Positions 9,853 to 27,885 of a stretch of DNA of 64,000 nucleotides are shown here, piece by piece. Source of the stretch: a virus; IMG/VR virus record IMGVR_UViG_3300029448_000010, positions 19,931 to 83,930 of that record; one strand, 5' to 3'. The notes beneath the pieces were generated by a model. The model saw nothing but the letters and a program-made list of their open reading frames with translations. It was not told where the DNA came from and made no database searches. Both the position numbers and the translations under genes were made by a program. Within the stretch, counting starts at the first letter, position 1, and every line of letters begins with the position of its first letter.

Positions 9853-10692
9853 TTAAATTACCATTCCTTTTATTTCGGACATTTTATTATATCCTAACAT
9901 TTGTATTATCTTTTTACTTGTCTTTCCTATTGCTGAAAGTGAGATACCTGTTGATTCGGTTATATCGGATTTTCTAACACCTTCGTATCTGAATATATTA
10001 GACGCTACCCAACAAACACTAGCGTAGTATGCTCTAGGTTTATTAAAACAATGAGTCTCCACTAACGGTTCTAGTTTTTCTAATAGAGTAACTGCGTTAG
10101 AATAGAACATTATATCATCAGTTACTTTACTGCAAACCTGCTTTAACATAAAGGTAGGGTCTGCACCATACAATAGATTTTTGTTTTTGAAGTGATTAAT
10201 CATCTTCTGTACTAACCTATTTACTATTTTAATAGAACAGGAGTATTCCGAACATAACTCTTTCATTGAAGCAGGTGTCCTATTCTCTTTTAGAACATAG
10301 AAAACCGTAGCAGTACATCTTGCTTCTAATTTTATTTTACCGAATAGACCTTTCTGTTGAGAATCTAAATAACATTCTTCCACTCGCTCTTTTAGAGGGT
10401 GGTTTATCTGAATGCTAGATAGAATCATATTACAAGTCTGTAATCCTGAAAGGATATGTCTAGGTGTTGTTGAGTTGTTGCCTCTTCTATTAAACTTGTA
10501 AGAACCCTTACCTGAAATAATAGACCCTAGTTTACCTTTATCGGCTGAATGAGTAACTACTCCGTCATCAACCATTCTTACAGTCTCTTCAAACAATTCA
10601 GTAACTACGACTAAGCCGCAATCACTACATTCTGTCTCTCCCATTCTTTCATTATAATTAAATATTAAACTACCACATTCACTGCATTTCAT
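9853..10692 (-). CDS. tfb: Transcription factor B (TFIIB/TFB) homologue
   Basis: N-terminal Zn ribbon CSECGS...GETECSDCGLVV followed by two cyclin-fold repeats. Likely start is 10692. Confidence 0.85.
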   Translation of the reverse strand: MKCSECGSLIFNYNERMGETECSDCGLVVVTELFEETVRMVDDGVVTHSADKGKLGSIISGKGSYKFNRRGNNSTTPRHILSGLQTCNMILSSIQINHPLKERVEECYLDSQQKGLFGKIKLEARCTATVFYVLKENRTPASMKELCSEYSCSIKIVNRLVQKMINHFKNKNLLYGADPTFMLKQVCSKVTDDIMFYSNAVTLLEKLEPLVETHCFNKPRAYYASVCWVASNIFRYEGVRKSDITESTGISLSAIGKTSKKIIQMLGYNKMSEIKGMVI

Positions 10693-11962
10693 CCATCTCA
10701 ACCCTATATTCATTTTCATTACATTGTATGTATCTTTGTATTGTATTTACTATTTTAACCGTCATTGTGTCATTCAATAACGCTAAGGCTCTTGCTACAA
10801 ATTGGTCGCCTAGTGAAGAACCGCCTGTCATATTATCAATACAAATTGGCCCTCTCCAAGTACCTTCTCTAACAGGCATTTCAGGATAAGATTGTAATGT
10901 TAATTCTTCTTCTGTGCAAGTATCTGCATACATTTCTTTATATTCAGCATTTTGCTGGTCTATTTCCGCACAAGAAGCATCCCATTTTTGAATCGCTTCA
11001 TTAAAGGCGTGTTCGGTAATAGAAGGAGAATAAACAAAGGTCGAAACCATTTGAATATCAGACTTGAACTTATTGTTAGTCAGTTTCCAATCCCAACCTT
11101 TACCACGAACATACATAGTAATAGGCTCATTATCTTCATAGATTACCTTTAGTCGATTAGGGTATTTTTCTGCCATATCTTTAACTAACTGCTTGGCCCT
11201 ACTTTCAACAATATCCTGTTGCCTGTTCTGTTTCATAAATTCTATCATTACCTTTCTATTAGCAATTGTAGGAGCGTTACCTACGGTTCTCTCATAGAGT
11301 AATTCTGGAGAAATAAACATCCATTTTTTACTTCGTTTCTTATTATGAAGATAGAAACTACAAAAGTATTCTAATTCTTTAAGAGTCATTGTACCCCAAA
11401 CACCATCACTAACTTCGATGGCAATTTCATCATCACTTATTTGCTGACAATCTAACCTAACCTCGGTCTTGACAAAATCAGAATAGAAGTGAAAGGGTAC
11501 TTTATTTTCTAAACAATACTTTACATCTTCGGGAATACTCAATGCTGAATATAGTGCCTTTAGTAATTTACCTGCATCATGCTCAAATGCGGCTTTCAGT
11601 GCCACTCTTGCTAATGCACATGCAATTGTACTAAGATTCTCTTTTTGACCGTTTACTGTTAAACGATTACCTATTCTCCCAATTGCTATCGGACAAGAAC
11701 CTATGTTAATTACACTGTTAAAATCAGAACTGGGGAAATCAAACACAGACGAAGCACTTCGTCTATAACGGCTATATCTTCGGGTCTTCTTTAAAGCCAG
11801 TTTAAAGAAATCAGTCAATGCTTTGTGTATTGGGTCTTTTGCGCTTCTGTCGTTATTAAGAGTTATATTTCTTCTCAAAGGAATATGGGAAGAAGATATT
11901 TGAGTACTCCAATATCCGCCTGAATCGTCTGGTTTTCTAATTTGTATTGTTACTGTATTCAT
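10679..11962 (-). CDS. Hypothetical protein; C-terminal region may be an E2/UBC-like domain
   Basis: 427 aa; WRGPICIDN resembles the E2 catalytic GxICLD motif and is followed by a helix (GDQFVARALALLND). Confidence 0.45.
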   Translation of the reverse strand: MNTVTIQIRKPDDSGGYWSTQISSSHIPLRRNITLNNDRSAKDPIHKALTDFFKLALKKTRRYSRYRRSASSVFDFPSSDFNSVINIGSCPIAIGRIGNRLTVNGQKENLSTIACALARVALKAAFEHDAGKLLKALYSALSIPEDVKYCLENKVPFHFYSDFVKTEVRLDCQQISDDEIAIEVSDGVWGTMTLKELEYFCSFYLHNKKRSKKWMFISPELLYERTVGNAPTIANRKVMIEFMKQNRQQDIVESRAKQLVKDMAEKYPNRLKVIYEDNEPITMYVRGKGWDWKLTNNKFKSDIQMVSTFVYSPSITEHAFNEAIQKWDASCAEIDQQNAEYKEMYADTCTEEELTLQSYPEMPVREGTWRGPICIDNMTGGSSLGDQFVARALALLNDTMTVKIVNTIQRYIQCNENEYRVEMDEMQ

Positions 11963-19199: not shown

Positions 19200-20633
19200 T
19201 CATCTCTTTGGTTTTGGCCCGCAATAGAACAGATTCTTCTTTGCTCTAGTAATTGCTACATAGCAAATGTTTCTCTCTTCTTTAGGATTAGTAGCCTTTG
19301 GGTGAGGCATTCTTTCAGTAGCAAGGATATATACATTGTCTGCTTCAAGACCCTTGGCCTTGTGAACAGTGGATAGCATAATCTCACCTTTGTCATTGTT
19401 ATCGAATACTCTCTTAATTTCAGCAATAATTCCACCAACAGTGTCAGCCTTACTTGAAAGAATAAGCAAACATTCATGCTTGTCTTCAAGGTTATTTGCT
19501 TGGTTAAACTTCTCAGCCTTAACCAATTTATTATACTGGAAAGTATAGTCTTGTTGTAGTAAATCAATAAACTCTTTTGAACCCATACTCTCGTTAGAAG
19601 TAATCTTCTTAACTGCATTAATCAATCCCTTAGTCATGTCACGGCCTAGAATATAGGCAGACTTACCTTGAAGGATTAGGTCATAGAAAGCAGAAACTAG
19701 CGGTGCATTATATCTGCACAATACCATATCTCCCTCTAAAGGAGTAAAGGCCGCATTTACAATTACATTACCATCTTCTGCATCAGAACGGCAACTAAAA
19801 TCTGTTACATATCTGTTTGCTTCAGCAACGACGCTTTTAGGACATCTCCAAGTTAGACTCAAGGAGAAACGCTTTGTTTCTCTATCATCATGACTTAATC
19901 TTTCAGCAAACATATTCATTGAATTTGAATCTGCTCCACGGAAGCCATAAATTGCCTGATTAGGGTCGCCTACAATAATACATCTGCCGCTTCCCACACA
20001 TCTTGAAATTAACTCTCTTTGCATTTCATTGAAGTCTTGCGCTTCATCAACGAATAGAGTATCAAAGGTAGGTAATGGCATGTTTAGCACCAAAGGCAAC
20101 CAAATCATATCATCAAAATCAATCATTGAAGTATTCTCCATACATCTGTTAAGAATGGCTGGAATGTTCGCTAATGCGATTGCTTCTTCACGGTCTGATT
20201 TAAATTCAACATTGTATTCATCAATTAGTCTATGAATTTCTAGAACATCATTACCATCAATCAATGAACCTTTAATTAGACTAATTAGTTTAACTAGTGG
20301 CTGTGCGTAAAAGTCACGACCTAGAATATCATCAATAATATTCTTTACTTTGAAGTTGTTTACTTTGGTTTTGATACCTGCGGCTCTTAATGCTGCAAAT
20401 CCTAAAGCATGGAAAGTTTTTGCTTCAACATCATTAGGAAGTCTTTCTCCTAATTCAGTCGCTATTGACTTATTAAATGCCAAAAACGCTTTCTTATTTC
20501 CATTATCTCTATTCGCTCCTTCAACAATTGTAAAGGTTTTACCAACACCGGCTCCCGCATCAACTATGATGTGTGAGTTACCGTGTGCTATTTCCTCCCA
20601 TATTGCTCTTTGTTCTATTGTTCCATTTATCAT
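19200..20633 (-). CDS. Superfamily 1 (UvrD/Rep-like) helicase
   Basis: AGAGVGKT, VDEAQD, VGDPNQAIYGFRGA, STVHKAKGLE, YVAITRAK. Confidence 0.95.
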   Translation of the reverse strand: MINGTIEQRAIWEEIAHGNSHIIVDAGAGVGKTFTIVEGANRDNGNKKAFLAFNKSIATELGERLPNDVEAKTFHALGFAALRAAGIKTKVNNFKVKNIIDDILGRDFYAQPLVKLISLIKGSLIDGNDVLEIHRLIDEYNVEFKSDREEAIALANIPAILNRCMENTSMIDFDDMIWLPLVLNMPLPTFDTLFVDEAQDFNEMQRELISRCVGSGRCIIVGDPNQAIYGFRGADSNSMNMFAERLSHDDRETKRFSLSLTWRCPKSVVAEANRYVTDFSCRSDAEDGNVIVNAAFTPLEGDMVLCRYNAPLVSAFYDLILQGKSAYILGRDMTKGLINAVKKITSNESMGSKEFIDLLQQDYTFQYNKLVKAEKFNQANNLEDKHECLLILSSKADTVGGIIAEIKRVFDNNDKGEIMLSTVHKAKGLEADNVYILATERMPHPKATNPKEERNICYVAITRAKKNLFYCGPKPKR

Positions 20634-20868
20634 TGTTATTCCTCCATTTTTATTTGTGAGTAGGTGGGAGAAGGAGTGCGATGTATAAATACATCATATC
20701 TTCTTGTTGTAGCCCCTTGCTCTCGACTTCTCCCGTTGAAGCGGTAATACTTGGTATTACTTTTTGCTCCAATACTAAGGGGGGCCACACTATATGAAGG
20801 GTGCCGCAGGTCGCCCGACCCCCCTTGATTAACAATTAAATGCCAATCTAGGGTCACTTAACAGTCAA

Positions 20869-20909
20869 TAAAAAAAGCCCCCACCGAGAGCGAACTCCCG
20901 ATGAGGGCA
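20869..20909 (-). terminator. Intrinsic-type terminator
   Basis: Minus strand GCCCTCATCGGGAG-TTCG-CTCTCGGTGGGGGC followed by TTTTTTT. Confidence 0.7.
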
Positions 20910-20957
20910 ATAGCCTGTTAAGGCGAAACCATACCGACTTAATCAAAGCGAATTACT

Positions 20958-21434
20958 TCACTCTGAAGAATCATCTGACAAAAGCGAGTTAACGCTTCCA
21001 TCCCATGTCTTTAGACGATACTGCTTAGAAAGCATGTTTCGTACTTTCTTAGTCTGTGCCGAAGCATAGTCTTCAGCAGAGTCAAATACTCCGCCACCGG
21101 ACTTTGCGTGTTTTAGAGACACTGCCGCTATAATACCATCATGGTTATAGTACGCTAATGCCGCTTCTTCAACAACTCCACAAATGCGGTCAATTGCTAC
21201 TCTAACTGCTGCTGGAACACTACTTCTTTGTCCACGACGGCCCAAAGGTGAACCATCACGGCCCTTCAATAGTGCCTTTAGTGCGTTTGTAGCCGCATCT
21301 CTTTCATTCGGGTTTTCCTGACCAACTTGAAGGTGCAACTCAACAACTTGCTTGAGTGCGCCATCTAACTGTTCATCTGCTTCTAGGTAATCGTTAATCT
21401 CGATAACGAGACTGTCCCATTTTACATCTTCCAT
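20958..21434 (-). CDS. Hypothetical protein, paralog family A (copy 1)
   Basis: Likely start MEDVKW after GGAGG; shares HAKSGGG and WDG motifs with the ORFs at 24780 and 25583. Confidence 0.75.
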   Translation of the reverse strand: MEDVKWDSLVIEINDYLEADEQLDGALKQVVELHLQVGQENPNERDAATNALKALLKGRDGSPLGRRGQRSSVPAAVRVAIDRICGVVEEAALAYYNHDGIIAAVSLKHAKSGGGVFDSAEDYASAQTKKVRNMLSKQYRLKTWDGSVNSLLSDDSSE

Positions 21435-21509
21435 ATTTCTCAATTCCTCCCCGCTAACTACGGGGCAAACTCTCCACTGGCTAACCATATATAAGGAGAG
21501 TCAATGACC

Positions 21510-22120
21510 TATTTCCGATGTAATTCAGACACCTTTACTTATTACACCTACAACATAATGATTATCAATAATAATTAACTAATTACGATATATCGAATTA
21601 TAATTAAAAAAGAAATGGCTCATTTTAATTAGGCAAACATTATTCCACCGGAAAAATAAGAGGAATAATAATAGGTAGTAAAACGACAGGGTTGTGATAC
21701 ATAACTATTCTAATTCTAGGAGGTTTGACATTATTCCATTATTCCACTTTTTTTAGGGGGTCACTATCTCATAGGGTCTATACATAACCCTAGAGAATCT
21801 AAGGGGTTCATATCCCATAAGAAACAAAGGGGATATACTTGTCAGATTGCCTTAGAGTATATGGAATAATGGAATAATGGAATAAAAAAATATCTTTATA
21901 CTTATGTTACATAACCCTCTAGTTTCTTTAATTATATTTCCATTTTGGGGTGGAAACATCGGTGGAAACATCTTTTCCATTGTATATTATATGATATATT
22001 ATATTCATATTGAATACCTATACCATAGTTATACGCTCAATTGAAAGATAGATTAACTAATAGTCCACTATTCCGGTAGTGAAATATTACCTCCAAATAA
22101 TCGCTCGTTAATACTATGTA
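21510..22120. repeat. AT-rich ORF-free tract with direct and inverted short repeats (candidate replication origin or genome end)
   Basis: (GGAATAAT)x3 at about 21863-21885, inverse ATTATTCC copies at about 21639 and 21730-21746, (GGTGGAAACATC)x2 at about 21949-21972. Confidence 0.5.
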
Positions 22121-22174
22121 TCTTGGTTGTAGTGGCACTTTGCAGAACGGAAACCCTAAAAAAATAGGAGGGGA

Positions 22175-22206
22175 GGCTCCATAGGGGGCGAACCCCCTAT
22201 GAAGCC
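22175..22206 (-). terminator. UUCG hairpin terminator of cassette 1
   Basis: Minus strand GGCTTCATAGGGGG-TTCG-CCCCCTATGGAGCC, then a pyrimidine run and T7. Confidence 0.7.
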
Positions 22207-22255
22207 AACTTTGGGTGCAATACCCAGTTAACTGAGTGAAAAATCAGATAATTCT

Positions 22256-22516
22256 TCATTCGTCGTTGCGCTTATTGTTCAACCTGCGAATCATGTTGAC
22301 AATTTTGTTCTGGTCGTATTTGGTAAAACTACCTGACATGACTATTCTCAAATCTTCATTGAGATGAAACCTGTCAAGTCTGATGCTGGGATTAACATCC
22401 ATCAATCGCCCGACAAAAGCCAGTATTTTCTTTCTATATCTAAAAGCATCAGAGCAGTATTGAATATCAATACTCCCTGCGCCAGTCATCAAGTCTATGT
22501 TCATTTGTGCGCCCAT
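22256..22516 (-). CDS. Hypothetical protein (cassette gene)
   Basis: 86 aa; GGTGA SD and CCTATATCAT TATA upstream. Confidence 0.7.
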   Translation of the reverse strand: MGAQMNIDLMTGAGSIDIQYCSDAFRYRKKILAFVGRLMDVNPSIRLDRFHLNEDLRIVMSGSFTKYDQNKIVNMIRRLNNKRNDE

Positions 22517-22565
22517 ATTATCACCTTGTAATGATAATGGCTCCTGTATATGATATAGGCTCCCT

Positions 22566-22600
22566 CAAAGTTACGACCATATGGTTGTAAATCGGCTTTG
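22566..22600. repeat. Conserved palindromic inter-cassette element 1
   Basis: CAAAG TTACG ACCATATGGT TGTAA ATCGG CTTTG. Confidence 0.85.
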
Positions 22601-22681
22601 GTAATTTGCGTTCTTAAAAAAATAGAAAAAAATGATGCAGGGCCGATTTAAGTCACCCTGCATCATTTTTTACATCAAACC

Positions 22682-23047
22682 TCATACATGCCATCGAATA
22701 GCCGTTTTTGGCATTGTCATCAGCAGTGAAAACGCTGCTTTGATATACGATTCTTCATTTTCTTTATCGAAGAAATCACAAGTTATCGACAATATTTCTT
22801 GAAGGTTTTCGGGAACATCACTGAAATTGATTGAGGGTTTCAATCCATTTTCAAGTACCAAGTTTTTGAAATCTGCATACATTTTAATTCCATTATCGGA
22901 CATCAAAGTTATTCCATCTCGTTCTCGGACACATTGACCACATAGAACAGTTATGTTGATTTCTGACAATTCATCTTCATGTTCTGAACCATAAAACCCA
23001 TAACTGACCGTTTCTCCACATTCGCACATACTCTCACACCATGACAT
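22682..23047 (-). CDS. Hypothetical Zn-binding protein (cassette gene)
   Basis: CECG...CGQC; GGTGA SD and CCTATATCAT TATA upstream. Confidence 0.7.
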   Translation of the reverse strand: MSWCESMCECGETVSYGFYGSEHEDELSEINITVLCGQCVRERDGITLMSDNGIKMYADFKNLVLENGLKPSINFSDVPENLQEILSITCDFFDKENEESYIKAAFSLLMTMPKTAIRWHV

Positions 23048-23094
23048 ATTATCACCTATTAATATCTATTATTGAAGATGATATAGGGCCGCTA

Positions 23095-23125
23095 CAAAGT
23101 CACAACCATATGGTATTAGACTTTG
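23095..23125. repeat. Conserved palindromic inter-cassette element 2
   Basis: CAAAG TCACA ACCATATGGT ATTAGA CTTTG. Confidence 0.85.
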
Positions 23126-23142
23126 AGCATCCTTCGGAGAAC

Positions 23143-23594
23143 AAAAAAAATAATGAAGAAAATCCGGTTAATAGGTCAATCAACTACAATACTGCATTGT
23201 TTTTACCCATTTCTCTAGAACTATGGGACTATTTTTTAGCAGAATCACATGTAGTTATGTGATTGACTTTTCACCTTCATTTCTCCATATGGGAATTGAA
23301 AGGTGTTGGACAGGCTATCTTTTAGATTCCTGCATTGTGAGTGAATTATCTTGCATCACTAAGTTTGAAAGTCCGTTATGGATTTCATATATGAGGTCAC
23401 AAACTACACAATCTATTCATTGACAGTCAATCAACGCCCTTTTGAGGAACATAGGCCAAGAGCCACTATTCTAACTCATTTGAGCATCGAATACTGGTTA
23501 GACTCGCCACCACAGCGATTAGTGCATACCTTACGCCCCTTCAAGCGCATTCGGTCACCAACTATCCCAAGAACCCGCTAAAGTACCTTGAGAC
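23143..23594 (-). ncRNA. Candidate ~450-nt non-coding RNA occupying a whole cassette
   Basis: Same promoter and initiator (ATATTATTGTCTCAA) as the 25307 gene and a terminal T-tract, but no minus-strand ORF of 60 aa or more; 5' hairpin GUCUCAAG/CUUGGGAU. Confidence 0.45.
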
Positions 23595-23630
23595 AATAAT
23601 ATGGCACATTACCGTATATATCGGCTACTA

Positions 23631-23661
23631 CAAAGTTACTACCATATGGTAGTGTACTTTG
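23631..23661. repeat. Conserved palindromic inter-cassette element 3
   Basis: CAAAG TTACT ACCATATGGT AGTGTA CTTTG, a near-perfect palindrome. Confidence 0.85.
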
Positions 23662-23730
23662 GTGATAGCCTATTTCAAAAAAAAAATAATAGAAAGCCGA
23701 TGTAAGTCACTTTCTATTATTTTTTTATTT

Positions 23731-23879
23731 TGGACACCCACTATGGCACTTTAGACGACCATGTTTCATCAGTTAATGTCAGACTACTGGCCAGTAGTCC
23801 AAATACACCGGATGAGTTTTTGTTTCCCCGTCATTTTTCTGTACCAAACTATTCGGTCAGATTGTGCCACAGTGAGTGT
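23731..23879 (-). ncRNA. Candidate structured RNA: 16-bp closing stem ending in CCA, with internal hairpins
   Basis: ACACUCACUGUGGCAC (23879-23864) pairs with GUGCCAUAGUGGGUGU (23749-23734), immediately followed by CCA. Confidence 0.5.
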
Positions 23880-23884
23880 GGAAT

Positions 23885-24061
23885 CTATTCATCCCATAAA
23901 GCCGCTCTGAAATGCTTTTCGTTGAATGTGTCGCTATCTTCACTTAGCATAGCACATAATTCATTCACTAGGTCTTCATGGCTTATTAGGCCATCAGACA
24001 TAGTAACATGATTGAGTACTTTTACTAATGCGAGATAATGTCTTTTTGAAAACTTGCTCAT
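23885..24061 (-). CDS. Small hypothetical protein (58 aa)
   Basis: Not in the track; MSKFSKRHYLALVKVL...FNEKHFRAALWDE; ATGA-coupled to the 24058 gene. Confidence 0.65.
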   Translation of the reverse strand: MSKFSKRHYLALVKVLNHVTMSDGLISHEDLVNELCAMLSEDSDTFNEKHFRAALWDE

Positions 24062-24522
24062 TCTTCTTCATCTCCTGATAGGTCTAAGTCCCGAATACAC
24101 AATATAGCCGCAGTACGGTTTCTATCGAATGTGTCGTCATTATCGAATAGAGTTTCAGTCATTTTATGTAATTGAAATGACACTACAAGTTTCATATCTT
24201 CATCCTTAATCAAGGGAAGTTGTTTCTGTAACTTCAATAATTTATTGATTCTGCCTCTAATCCATGCACGGTCAATCATTTTGTTACCTGTGCTACTAAC
24301 TTCATCTATTTGCACAACTCCGACATCAGTACCAAACACAACATAATCAACGCATGTAATTGTTAATTTGTTAAGGCTCATAGTCCATTCAATATCCGTG
24401 CTTGTATCTCTTTCACTCCACATACTAACCATTGTGTTAGTATCTGTGAATTGATATACCATTTGTTTCTTGATTGTTCCATCATTATACACTGTATCGC
24501 CATAGGTAGTTATTATCTCCAT
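24058..24522 (-). CDS. Hypothetical protein (cassette gene, probably leaderless)
   Basis: 154 aa; ATG lies about 25 nt downstream of CCTAAATA, with no SD. Confidence 0.7.
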   Translation of the reverse strand: MEIITTYGDTVYNDGTIKKQMVYQFTDTNTMVSMWSERDTSTDIEWTMSLNKLTITCVDYVVFGTDVGVVQIDEVSSTGNKMIDRAWIRGRINKLLKLQKQLPLIKDEDMKLVVSFQLHKMTETLFDNDDTFDRNRTAAILCIRDLDLSGDEEE

Positions 24523-24558
24523 GTTAATATGGCATATTGGGGGCTATTTAGGCTAGCA

Positions 24559-24594
24559 CAAAGCCGCTACCATATGGTTGTAAAATGTGCTTTG
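24559..24594. repeat. Conserved palindromic inter-cassette element 4
   Basis: CAAAG CCGCT ACCATATGGT TGTAAAATGTG CTTTG. Confidence 0.85.
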
Positions 24595-24779
24595 GCGTTT
24601 GGCGTTCTTAAAAAAAAAGGGCTGGGAAAGGGGAATAGCGAGTAGGTTTCATTCTTCTCTCGCTATCCCCCTTTCTCTCATCTTATCGCATTGACTCTGT
24701 TCAGATTATTATAATTTTAACTGGTATTCCGATTGCCCGATGAGTATTAATTGGGGCCACAAAGGGTTTGAAGTGAGTA

Positions 24780-25307
24780 TCAGTGTGATTCCTCCGTTGA
24801 GTCCTCGTCACTTTCTTCATTGTCTGATGTTTCCTTAACTAGCGGAGTTATGTTAGTTAGTCCATCATCAGTCATTGTACCATCCCAACGGTCATCTTTC
24901 AATGCCGCCTTTAGTACTCTTACTGCTTTTGTTGCCATATCTTTTGCGTATGCGTCAATATCAGCGTAAACACCGCCGGTTTTGCCATGAGGAAGCATAA
25001 CTTCCAAAACAAGGTTAGCGTCAGTAATGGTTGCAAAGGCAGTTTGAATGCGGTTCTGAACAGAATCCACAACAGCCTGTATTGCTGGCTCTAGTGTTGA
25101 GCCACGGCCCTTCTTGATAGGTGAGTTTGGCAGTGTTTTGCACAATGCCCTTACTGCCTCCCAAAAACGGTTCCTATCTTCATCAGATGCGGCATCGTCG
25201 CCAGCATCTAAGTTTACTGTAATTACATTAGTCATGGCTCCAGCGTCATTGTGCTGTAACCATGCTCTGATTTCGTTAGACTTCATTATCCATTTATCGT
25301 TTTCCAT
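24780..25307 (-). CDS. Hypothetical protein, paralog family A (copy 2)
   Basis: Likely start MENDKW after GGAG; N-terminal half nearly identical to 25583..26068 (FWEAVRALCKTLPNSPIKKGRGSTL). Confidence 0.8.
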   Translation of the reverse strand: MENDKWIMKSNEIRAWLQHNDAGAMTNVITVNLDAGDDAASDEDRNRFWEAVRALCKTLPNSPIKKGRGSTLEPAIQAVVDSVQNRIQTAFATITDANLVLEVMLPHGKTGGVYADIDAYAKDMATKAVRVLKAALKDDRWDGTMTDDGLTNITPLVKETSDNEESDEDSTEESH

Positions 25308-25400
25308 TCTTTTCATCTCCTGTATTAAAATAACTCCTAATACCAACCTCAAACCCTTTGAGACAATAATATAGCACCCTGCGGTATATGTAGGGTTGAG

Positions 25401-25451
25401 CAAAGATACAACCATATGGTGTTAAGTGATTATGTAATAATCATCGCTTTG
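25401..25451. repeat. Conserved palindromic inter-cassette element 5
   Basis: CAAAG ATACA ACCATATGGT, a 26-nt self-complementary insert, then CTTTG. Confidence 0.8.
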
Positions 25452-25487
25452 CGACTTAACAGCCTATTAAAAAAATAAAAGGCTACA

Positions 25488-25543
25488 ACCGGCATAGACT
25501 GAATTAACAGATTAGAACTAGTTTTTAATTAGTCTATGCCGGT
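25488..25543 (-). terminator. Hairpin terminator of a cassette
   Basis: ACCGGCATAGACT...AGTCTATGCCGGT 13-bp inverted repeat; T-tract follows on the minus strand. Confidence 0.65.
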
Positions 25544-25582
25544 CATAATGTAAGTGGGGCTACGGGGGATATTCCGCATCAA

Positions 25583-26068
25583 TCATTCTTCTTCTTCAAC
25601 CTCCAGATTGAAGGTTTGAGCATTTAGTCCATCACGACTACCATCCCAAATACCATTCTTTAGACGCTTTTTGAGCGAACCTACAATAGTACTCGACATG
25701 TATGCTGAATACTCATCAGCAGTGAATAAACCACCGCCAGACTTACCGTGCTTCAATAATAGCATATTCATGCTACCAGTAGCAAAAAAATCAGAGGCCG
25801 CCTGTGCGACTTCATCTGATATTGAGTCAAGAACCGCTTGAATTTCGGGAGCAAGTGTTGAACCCCTTCCTTTCTTAATTGGGCTATTTGGCAGTGTTTT
25901 ACATAATGCTCTAACTGCTTCCCAAAATCTATCTCGGTCTTCATCTGTTGTTGCGCTATTACCTGCTTCAAGGTTAACTTGAATTACATTTGTCATAGCA
26001 CCTGCGTCATTTTCATTTAGCCATGCACTTATCATGCTGGCTCTTTCTGTCCATTTCTCTATATCCAT
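25583..26068 (-). CDS. Hypothetical protein, paralog family A (copy 3)
   Basis: 161 aa; MDIEKW..., HGKSGGG and WDG motifs. Confidence 0.8.
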   Translation of the reverse strand: MDIEKWTERASMISAWLNENDAGAMTNVIQVNLEAGNSATTDEDRDRFWEAVRALCKTLPNSPIKKGRGSTLAPEIQAVLDSISDEVAQAASDFFATGSMNMLLLKHGKSGGGLFTADEYSAYMSSTIVGSLKKRLKNGIWDGSRDGLNAQTFNLEVEEEE

Positions 26069-26170
26069 TAATAATCAACTCCTAATTGTGTTTGATTAAT
26101 GCTTCAATCCCCCGAAGCAATAATATAGCCACTTAGGGTATAATTAGGCTAGTCGTTCATTCTTCACTGG

Positions 26171-26225
26171 CAAAGCACCTACCATATGGTTGTGAGTCGT
26201 AATTCGTCTATATAGATGGCCTTTA
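26171..26225. repeat. Conserved palindromic inter-cassette element 6
   Basis: CAAAG CACCT ACCATATGGT TGTG...CTTTA; a degenerate seventh copy TACAACCATATGGCTTTGTA lies at 26384-26403. Confidence 0.75.
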
Positions 26226-26912
26226 TGACGATTAAAAACATTCGTTTTGGAGAATAAGGTATTTTTTAATAATGAAAGATAACACTTTAATTGAGTTGAT
26301 GCGATTATTTAGGTGATTTTGGCTTGTATGCGAAGTCACCTATATATTTTTAAAAAATCTATATAGGCCAACATAGCAGTTTATACAACCATATGGCTTT
26401 GTACAAATTTTTTATTTGCCTATATTAACATTAAAATGCCCATATTTAGGTGTTAATTAGCCAATATTAACATTTAAAGGTTAATTATTTCGCCATTATA
26501 CCGGCATACTTATACCATAAACAGGACTCGCTTAATACGGGATTGATAGTGTCAGACGATAATGATGCAATTAAACACCTTAATAATATAGTTAACATTA
26601 TTACACCAATACTTTCGGATATTAAAACTAATACTGAATCAAAGACTAATATACAAGTTACACCGGATAATAAGGTTAAATTAAAAGAAATAGCAAAGAT
26701 GCTTAAAACATTAAAAGCAAAGATTATAGCATTATACCATCCAAAGCCCACTAAACAAACTTCATTAAATATAAAATAACATTAAATCATTAAGATTTTA
26801 TTCTGGGAATACATTAATTAATAAAAAAATGCTGACGCTAGTGCCACAAAAATTCCGCCACAATTTTTCAAAAACGATTCTATTTTAAACAATTAACAGG
26901 AAAAGGATTAAT

Positions 26913-27203
26913 ATGACATGGAAAAATAGTATTAAAAAAGCCAAAAAGGTTTATGTTGTCGTAAAGTTCGGAGCATATCATAATCCTAAAGACCTTAAAT
27001 TGTCTGTCTTTGATGATAGGAAAAAGGCAGAAGAGGCTTTACAAAAAGTAACTTCATACAACGAAGATGGCAGTATAGATGACGGTAGTGGAAAAAGAAC
27101 GAAAGGCGAGGCATATATTTACCAAACTTACATGAATGAAGATTTCCCAAATACACCTAGATTACTAACGCCACTCAAAGATAGACAACAGAAAAAGAAG
27201 TGA
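26913..27203 (+). CDS. Tagged hypothetical protein (MTWKNSIKK)
   Basis: First convincing plus-strand gene; N-terminal W-tag. Confidence 0.7.
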   Translation: MTWKNSIKKAKKVYVVVKFGAYHNPKDLKLSVFDDRKKAEEALQKVTSYNEDGSIDDGSGKRTKGEAYIYQTYMNEDFPNTPRLLTPLKDRQQKKK

Positions 27204-27208
27204 TTAAT

Positions 27209-27376
27209 ATGACACGCTGTAATTATTTAGAAGGCTGGTTCGATAAGGAATCTGCTAAATTAGACAAAGTTGAGAATGATTATGGTACTTGTTTAGTTAC
27301 AGGTCAAAAGAAAAAGGCTACTACTTTAACTAAGGCTCAAGCATGGGCCAAAGTATTCAGGAGGAATAAGGTATGA
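27209..27376 (+). CDS. Small hypothetical protein (55 aa)
   Basis: Not in the track; MTRCNYLEGWFD...; fills the gap and overlaps the next gene (ATGA). Confidence 0.55.
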   Translation: MTRCNYLEGWFDKESAKLDKVENDYGTCLVTGQKKKATTLTKAQAWAKVFRRNKV

Positions 27377-27885
27377 GTTGGCAAGATATAGTGAAAGTAT
27401 CAATTACAGAGGGTCTATTCAATCAGACAAAAGAAAAGATGAGAGACATAAAAGCACAGTTAAGTGGTTTAGAGAATAGTTATACGAAAACGGCTTTAGA
27501 CGAGATAGTTCATATCTATGAACAAGCAAAGAAGGCTCATAGGGAAAATAATAAAAAACTACTTGGATTTCATCTTAGAACAATGACAATAATAGGAAAA
27601 GACATATCAAACTACTTTGATGCACAAGATATAGTAAAAGGTTCAGATAATGAACGAAATATAAGTGCAGATTCTTTTAGAGAATACGGAAAGGCTTCAA
27701 AGGAAAACCCTACATCTGCAAAAGACGATATTTCAACCCGTTCTCCTGAATTACAAAAAGGCGCACGGACATATCCACAAGGTATTGAAAAGGTAGGCAA
27801 GTTATTTTCTAAAGGAAAAATCGACATGAAGAGATATACAGAACTTCGTAAAGAATTACAGGAAATATTCGGAGTGGGGGAATAG
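27373..27885 (+). CDS. Tagged hypothetical protein (MSWQDIVK)
   Basis: N-terminal tag; internal partial repeat AQDIVK. Confidence 0.7.
   Translation: MSWQDIVKVSITEGLFNQTKEKMRDIKAQLSGLENSYTKTALDEIVHIYEQAKKAHRENNKKLLGFHLRTMTIIGKDISNYFDAQDIVKGSDNERNISADSFREYGKASKENPTSAKDDISTRSPELQKGARTYPQGIEKVGKLFSKGKIDMKRYTELRKELQEIFGVGE

Follow-up and report, generated by a model that had tools for sequence, protein, structure and literature searches.

A covarying helix joins the transcription start to the stop-codon region in two paralogous mRNAs of a putative archaeal virus

Introduction

In the Bacillus subtilis hbs mRNA, a long-range helix within the one message joins the 5′ untranslated region (UTR) to the 3′ UTR. 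This helix is 14 bp long, lies inside the 5′ UTR of a single bacterial gene, affects ribonuclease access and links stability to translation (Braun, Durand & Condon, 2017, PMC5737220). The 3′ UTR of Staphylococcus aureus icaR likewise pairs with its own 5′ UTR, masking the Shine-Dalgarno sequence and creating an RNase III site (PMC3868564). Within the archaea, both UTRs are jointly required for translational control in haloarchaea; the authors of that work discuss UTR interaction as a forerunner of mRNA circularisation and propose no base pairing (Brenneis & Soppa, 2009, PMC2636863). Here we describe a helix that pairs the first nucleotides of an mRNA with the sequence at its stop codon, found in two paralogous genes, gA and gB, of a virus represented by IMG/VR record IMGVR_UViG_3300029448_000010. 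The stretch analysed, referred to below as the window, is the 3′ 64 kb of this 84-kb record.

Two further kinds of RNA bear comparison. The flanks of a long RNA also pair as a terminal stem in rRNA processing stems and in archaeal circularisation at bulge-helix-bulge motifs, while in tmRNA and viral tRNA-like structures (TLS) the 5′ and 3′ parts pair and are followed by N-CCA, as they are in the window. The last likeness had led a sequence-only reading of this region to propose a tRNA-acceptor mimic enclosing an open reading frame (ORF), a proposal that is weighed below against the evidence from relatives and from RNA contigs.

Results

Closing helices of gA and gB

The genes gA and gB are early genes, each in its own promoter-gene-terminator cassette. 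The parts of the two cassettes that concern the helix are as follows.

24780 to 25307, minus strand: gA ORF, 175 aa, helical, with an acidic C-terminal tail
25337 to 25364, minus strand: gA 5′ arm, its first base G25364 being the predicted +1
24756 to 24783, minus strand: gA 3′ arm, including the stop codon UGA at 24780-24782
24752 to 24755, minus strand: CCCA 3′ of the gA helix, kept in close relatives only; the RNA runs on past it
25583 to 26068, minus strand: gB ORF, 161 aa, a gA paralog with 54% amino-acid identity
26093 to 26118, minus strand: gB 5′ arm, with outer 12 nt at 26107-26118 (+1 = G26118), a UGAA loop and inner 10 nt at 26093-26102
25559 to 25585, minus strand: gB 3′ arm, with inner 10 nt at 25576-25585 including the stop codon, a GGAAU loop and outer 12 nt at 25559-25570
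25555 to 25558, minus strand: CCCA 3′ of the gB helix; in relatives, the insertion junction of a 150-nt structured module

The sequence-only reading had paired GUCUCAAAGGGUUUGA (25364-25349) with UCAAACCCUUUGUGGC (24771-24756) in gA, and GCUUCGGGGGAU (26118-26107) with AUCCCCCGUAGC (25570-25559) in gB. Both complementarities are present, and both continue beyond the part first claimed. Read on the minus strand, the gA helix found by inverted-repeat search and minimum free energy folding joins 25364-25337 to 24783-24756, some 25-28 positions (about 25 bp) that run over the stop codon. In gB the 12 bp are followed by a 4 × 5 internal loop and then by a second block of 10 bp, GCAUUAAUCA (26102-26093) with UGAUUGAUGC (25585-25576). 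The smaller details of that reading also hold: both 5′ arms start at a G after ATATTATT, both helices have a U-U mismatch at position 4, and CCCA follows each 3′ arm (24755-24752 and 25558-25555).

The cognate duplexes have energies of −40.2 (gA) and −39.4 kcal/mol (gB), against −22.6 and −24.8 kcal/mol when the arms are swapped. As had been claimed, the stem sequences of the two paralogs covary. At most 1 in 1,000 shuffled arms matched the observed gA or gB duplex energy, and the gB duplex is extreme among the 142 ORFs of the window (mean −15.2, standard deviation 5.5). In folds of the full-length messages, the long-range pairs have a probability of ∼1.0. In these folds neither the Shine-Dalgarno-like AGGAG or GGUGA nor the AUG, all of which come after the 5′ arm, pairs with the 3′ arm, so that masking of the icaR type is not seen. 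A 7-bp repeat at gB (TAAGUGG/CCACUUA), which extends upstream of +1, is not kept in one relative (L012) and was taken as chance.

Conservation and covariation in relatives

Two scans of viral contigs and one of metagenomes yielded 96 homologous loci (80 metagenome and 16 viral-contig, several of them overlapping), from which 51 cassettes with distinct arms were drawn. These represent 41 helix haplotypes and 17 clusters of 5′-arm sequence, one cluster arising from a mis-set +1 (L074). The closing helix was found in all 51 distinct cassettes, with a mean length of 26.7 bp (range 16-32), and in 50 of them its first paired nucleotide is +1. Across cassettes the cognate duplexes average −39.3 kcal/mol (standard deviation 4.8), compared with −20.8 kcal/mol for non-cognate arms differing at 6 or more of 24 positions and −15.1 kcal/mol for shuffled arms.

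An alignment of all clades misaligned the helix ends between clades; pair counts were therefore taken from clade D alone, and were complemented by the alignment-free duplex energies given above. Clade D is the most distant clade (27 sequences, with 43-54% protein identity to gA), and a structure of 31 pairs was counted in it. In this clade 89.5% of cells are paired, a share that falls to 30-43% once the partner is shifted by 1-3 columns, and double compensatory changes occur at 12 of the 31 pairs (58 cells). None of 500 shuffles reached the observed values of pairing and covariation. Compensation is also visible close to the window, which differs from one relative (L004) by the exchange of a U-A pair for A-U and by an indel of one base, each compensated on both arms. 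In another (L033), an unrelated arm sequence (GUUCCGGCAAGGAAU...) forms the same architecture.

The kinds of non-Watson-Crick pair bear on whether the arms act as RNA or as DNA. Arms that are recombination or inversion sites moving or flipping the gene would also be inverted repeats, and cassettes do move and flip between relatives, the non-coding RNA (ncRNA) unit described below being on the strand opposite to gA in L021, L028, L004 and L005. However, G-U and U-G pairs number 126 against 25 for A-C and C-A, an excess of five to one that is relevant only in sense-strand RNA and therefore points to selection on the sense RNA rather than the DNA. Furthermore, the arms differ between cassettes and start exactly at +1, and the rearrangement joints lie at sites of the promoter palindrome CCATATGG rather than at the arms. 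We consider DNA-level repeats an extremely improbable explanation. On comparative grounds, the helix exists, starts at +1 and is kept by compensatory change on the sense RNA in all 51 distinct cassettes.

Promoters and the start of the helix

That the helix begins at the transcription start, as had been proposed, is borne out by archaeal promoter geometry and by RNA contigs ending at 25364. The promoter and terminator features of the two cassettes are as follows.

25385 to 25419, minus strand: gA promoter, with the CCATATGG palindrome at 25412-25419, CTTTG at 25401-25405 and the TATA box TACATATA at 25385-25392 (−28 to −21)
26139 to 26189, minus strand: gB promoter, with CCATATGG at 26182-26189, CTTTG at 26171-26175 and the TATA box TAATTATA at 26139-26146 (−28 to −21)
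24610 to 24675, minus strand: gA distal hairpin (24626-24675) and T-run (24610-24618), where transcription of the gA unit probably stops
25469 to 25543, minus strand: gB terminator, with hairpin at 25488-25543 and T-run at 25469-25480

The window holds eight CCATATGG palindromes where 0.69 are expected, all of them within 22577-26396. Seven of the eight share one minus-strand layout, CCATATGG-N6-CTTTG-N8-TATA box-N13-A/T-rich box-purine, from which gB departs in having a spacer of 24 nt between CTTTG and the TATA box; the site at 23285-23292 lacks it. We read this layout as that of an archaeal promoter: an upstream site is followed by a TATA box (−28 to −21) and then by a promoter-proximal element, represented by the ATATTATT box, and +1 falls on the purine. 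The CCATATGG units thus look like archaeal promoters with a putative upstream protein-binding site. Bacterial promoter readings (sigma-70, Bacteroidetes −33/−7 and T7-like) were rejected, as none fits the spacings. A domain search for a T7-type RNA polymerase gave no match, and was uninformative given that its control matched in no genome. A start at this purine is supported by the RNA contigs, by the 50 of 51 distinct cassettes in which pairing begins there, and by another cassette, whose ORF at 24522 starts exactly at the equivalent +1 and whose mRNA is therefore leaderless; in two other cassettes a leader of 10-14 nt includes the ribosome-binding site GGUGA. The first letters of the leaderless mRNA, AUGGA (24518-24522), can pair with UCCA located 3′ of the closing stem of a neighbouring RNA module (23730-23733); this pairing is of 4 bp with a fold probability of 0.65-0.97, and may be chance.

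Ends of assembled RNA contigs

In metatranscriptome runs X2 and X4, the alignment of the gA RNA contigs stops at 25364, with 1-3 further letters left unaligned. At the other end, the gA contigs stop at 24737 and 24735 and that of gB at 25539, so that the RNA continues 16-21 nt beyond the CCCA of both genes; the 3′ ends predicted at 24752 and 25555 from the position of CCCA were not found there. No local structure accounts for the gA contig 3′ ends at 24735-24737. The contig 3′ ends could mark a point of 3′ trimming or cleavage, or could be an effect of assembly. Contigs do not cover 24486-24736, 25365-25538 or the region beyond 26100, which has no bearing on absence there.

One contig of 631 nt spans both gA arms unbroken, from 25364 to 24737. 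This is of consequence for a reading of the helix as a processing stem, in which the duplex would be cut by a double-strand-specific endonuclease, as RNase III cuts rRNA flanking stems and T7 early mRNAs, thereby trimming the mRNA or triggering its decay. The length of the duplex (22-32 bp) and its internal loops do fit RNase III substrates (≥20 bp criterion), and the 4 × 5 loop of gB resembles T7-type RNase III sites. The intact contig argues against such cutting, as does the domain search, in which the virus encodes no RNase III domain; many archaea, moreover, are not known to have RNase III. A start exactly at +1 would not be needed for the processing of read-through transcripts, and we regard a processing stem as improbable.

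The same contigs bear on circularisation, whereby an RNA ligase would seal the ends, as in archaeal C/D-box small RNAs, or cut and joined at a bulge-helix-bulge, as in archaeal rRNA, to give a circular coding RNA. The ends are indeed juxtaposed here, and two papers describe archaeal circularisation of RNAs whose ends meet through terminal stems (PMC9014305, PMC7038931). Yet the assembled RNAs are linear and end at +1 and ∼20 nt beyond the helix, and none of the 51 helices holds a bulge-helix-bulge, defined by a 3-nt bulge on each strand with 4 bp in between. The virus has neither RtcB nor a dedicated RNA ligase, its sole RNA_ligase-domain match being the DNA ligase. No circular or spliced joints were listed among the assembled contigs, which, covering assembled contigs only, is not evidence of absence. 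Taken together, circularisation seems very improbable.

The CCA sequence and the tRNA-acceptor reading

Under the tRNA-acceptor or tmRNA-like proposal, the paired ends and N-CCA would be recognised by RNase P or RNase Z, a CCA-adding enzyme or an aminoacyl-tRNA synthetase. In its favour, (N)CCA stands directly 3′ of the helix in both window cassettes and in about a third of the distinct relatives, and a third CCA lies 3′ of another closing stem, at 23731-23733. The terminal complementarity on which the proposal was built is kept throughout the 51 cassettes; the CCA is kept only in close relatives. Directly 3′ of the helix, the next four letters read ACCC in 24 cassettes, CCCA in 12 (all of them close relatives), CCCC in 4, CCAx in 7 and other forms in 4, with CCA replaced by CAC (L021 and L028), CUU (L074) or AUC (L088), in the four-letter forms CACU, CUUA and AUCA. 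The Cs of clade D belong to the terminator hairpin, of which they make up the 5′ strand and which starts one nucleotide 3′ of the helix.

The structure itself also differs from that of a tRNA. The helix is a continuous one of 22-32 bp, not a 7-bp acceptor stem stacked on a T-arm (7+5), and the T-loop consensus (GUUCRANYC-type) was found in none of the 51 cassettes. ARAGORN finds no tRNA or tmRNA genes in the window, and Rfam has no tRNA, tmRNA or TLS match at E ≤ 5 in 20500-27500. As noted above, the RNA contigs run 16-21 nt past the CCA. In gB the CCCA is exactly where a 150-nt indel, with UUCCAC repeats on its flanks, joins the sequence in close relatives, and the third CCA belongs to the same module, which the window carries after a different gene (23731-23879). 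Common descent of this junction sequence therefore accounts better for the recurrent CCA. With its long continuous helix, no T-arm, a CCA that is not conserved and no ARAGORN or Rfam match, the tRNA-mimic proposal is largely refuted and deserves almost no credence. The CCA likeness to tRNA is superficial.

Competing local hairpins and conserved mismatches

The 5′ arm is self-complementary in every clade (GCUUC-loop-GAAGY, CUCAAA-GGG-UUUGAG, GUUCC-GGCAA-GGAAU). Taken alone, the gA arm can fold as the 5′-terminal hairpin CUCAAA-GGG-UUUGAG and the gB arm as GCUUC-N8-GAAGC; the second of these is the alternative hairpin that had been raised as a caveat to the gB stem, and it does exist. Pairing in the 5′-terminal hairpin reaches 94.7% in clade D. 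The leader holds a second hairpin immediately before the ribosome-binding site; this hairpin is also conserved, and it covaries (one pair is GC in 15 sequences, UA in 10 and AU in 2).

Mismatches near the end of the closing helix are likewise conserved, as U-U in the window and as tandem U-U/U-Y in 27 of 27 clade D sequences. With these mismatches the 5′ hairpin stays perfect and the equivalent hairpin of the 3′ arm is spoiled. We infer an ordered folding pathway.

Genes, host and genomic setting

The proteins of gA and gB belong to no known family. PHROGs and Pfam hold no family for gA, gB or two neighbouring ORFs, a PDB profile search with the gA/gB protein family gave no match, and an AlphaFold model of a family protein (pLDDT 80) had no Foldseek match at E ≤ 0.001. 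Three-helix-bundle matches from VIA-align (Z ∼8) were set aside as generic, being equal to the background for helical proteins. Homologs of gA and gB are confined to marine metagenomes and viral contigs, with none in 185,579 prokaryote species genomes, and a BLAST of the cassette region against 50,697 phage records returned no match.

A third, distant paralog, gC (20958-21434), shares 27% identity. Its 5′/3′ duplex is no better than shuffled (175 of 1,000 shuffles), giving no end pairing. The promoter of gC is of another type, with TTTATATATGG, ∼10 nt and then GGAGAGUUUGCCC (region up to 21500), and the leader motif GGAGAGUUUG recurs 3′ of the gC terminator in relatives. Nearby, 21590-21900 is a gene-free stretch adjoining a strand switch, dense in inverted and direct GGAATAATGGAATAA repeats, and is a possible replication origin.

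Elsewhere the window encodes GroEL, a B12-dependent ribonucleotide reductase, an ATP-dependent DNA ligase, a UvrD-like helicase, a portal, a prohead protease and capsid proteins. Group B magroviruses, which have been assigned to marine group II archaea, carry GroEL, ribonucleotide reductase and ATP-dependent ligases, together with transcription and replication genes of archaeal type (PMC5434244). On the basis of this group B gene content and of its marine origin, the window is assigned to a magrovirus-like virus of marine group II archaea. The ORF at 9853-10719 (minus strand) encodes a divergent TFIIB/TFB-like protein, with zinc ribbon and cyclin-fold matches that agree across three libraries although each is weak (Pfam zinc ribbon 1e-4, NCBIfam TFIIB 1.6e-7, PDB TFIIB 3e-3). 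The presence of this gene argues for an archaeal virus rather than a phage.

Neighbouring structured RNAs

Two other RNAs of the region are structured. A minus-strand cassette at 23294-23594 has a promoter and a terminator without an ORF. Its RNA is by far the most abundant of the region, with contigs from three studies at depths of 100-620, versus 3-28 for neighbouring genes. The cassette is conserved in five relatives (L021, L028, L013, L004 and L005), in four of which it lies on the strand opposite to gA, and RNAalifold predicts 76 pairs for it, a closing helix among them; compensatory changes occur at 26 of the pairs. It has no Rfam match, and looks like a stable structured viral ncRNA of ∼270 nt.

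The second is a structured 3′-UTR module of 150 nt at 23731-23879 (minus strand), which follows another gene and has a covarying closing stem of 16-17 bp. In relatives (L012-L017 and L034, at ∼800-960) it is inserted exactly 3′ of the gB CCCA, the gB protein there being 98% identical. UUCCAC repeats lie on either side of the module, whose last letters are UCCA. From its insertion site and flanks, it behaves as a movable RNA module.

Discussion

We propose that the closing helix hides both ends of the mRNA and competes with a local 5′ hairpin, a reading that we hold at a probability of roughly 0.55. Transcription would start at the G found 28 nt on from the first base of the TATA box, and the first 25-31 nt of the mRNA would be complementary to ∼30 nt beginning at, or a few nucleotides after, the stop codon, such that the finished mRNA would close on itself via a terminal helix of 22-32 bp, or ‘panhandle’. 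Directly 3′ of the helix there would be either a hairpin or T-run terminator, as in clade D, or a longer trailer, as in the window. The 5′-terminal hairpin would form first, during transcription. Once made and unfolded, the 3′ arm would displace this hairpin to give the far more stable closing helix, and the conserved U-U/U-Y mismatches may serve to stop the 3′ arm from folding on itself. The closed form would bury the 5′-triphosphate end and the region near the 3′ end, and this burial could protect the message from end-dependent exonucleases, both 5′-3′ of the aRNase J type and 3′-5′ of the exosome type. Exonuclease protection appears the most economical function for such a helix.

Several observations weigh against this reading. 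The 5′ hairpin alone would protect the 5′ end, and protection by itself thus does not explain the 3′ complement. Contigs of both paralogs stop ∼20 nt 3′ of the closing helix, not at the T-run. The RNA-end evidence for gA and gB consists of assembled contigs from one study and two samples, of a strain ∼96% identical, and speaks to the presence of ends, not their abundance. Finally, the second leader hairpin competes with the innermost part of the closing helix (helix 2 of clade D, 75% paired), and because this hairpin itself covaries, the length of the helix in vivo is uncertain.

The position of the stop codon suggests an additional role. It lies inside the 3′ arm, or 4-5 nt before it, and the ribosome-binding site comes just after the 5′ arm and the leader hairpin. 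The closed helix would place the two next to each other, so that a terminating ribosome would melt the inner helix in each round, and this geometry could perhaps couple termination to re-initiation. Such coupling is described for overlapping gene pairs in archaea and bacteria (PMC6728339). In its fullest form, this would make an RNA-only closed-loop mRNA in which the terminating ribosome comes to lie only a few nucleotides from the ribosome-binding site, ribosomes re-initiate without leaving, both ends are shielded and the 5′ hairpin is the co-transcriptional ‘open’ state. We regard the closed loop as possible but rather unlikely. Were it correct, an archaeal virus would be doing by base pairing what eukaryotes do by circularising mRNA through the cap and poly(A).

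Comparison with known systems

Among the systems described at the outset, hbs is the nearest in kind. Unlike the hbs helix, that of gA and gB has 22-32 bp and links +1 to the stop codon; it comes from an archaeal virus, covaries across a gene family and is known from sequence. It differs from icaR in leaving the ribosome-binding site (AGGAG or GGUGA) free of the helix. In relation to the haloarchaeal work, which is likewise archaeal, it adds a direct, covarying helix, again identified from sequence. Unlike rRNA processing stems and bulge-helix-bulge systems, the helix encloses an ORF and carries no bulge-helix-bulge motif, and it departs from tmRNA and tRNA-like structures in lacking a T-arm, in its non-conserved CCA and in an RNA that runs past the CCA. 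The promoter-early stem-loop (PeSL) cassettes of T4-type phages are comparable in setting only: they too are small early genes, each a promoter-gene-terminator unit complete in itself and marked off by a recurring boundary signal, which here is CCATATGG. PeSLs are not known to pair their 5′ end with a 3′ UTR.

Neither hbs, icaR nor the haloarchaeal case has a full terminal helix extending from +1 as far as the stop codon, and none of the three comes from an archaeal virus; in the magrovirus literature we found no paper describing an end-to-end mRNA helix. With the covariation seen here, a helix from +1 to the stop codon is among the best-supported end-to-end interactions of prokaryotic mRNAs. 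It comes from a domain in which the two UTRs are known to cooperate, without a known physical basis (PMC2636863), and provides a mutable element with which to ask whether base-paired closure stabilises messages or recycles ribosomes in archaea.

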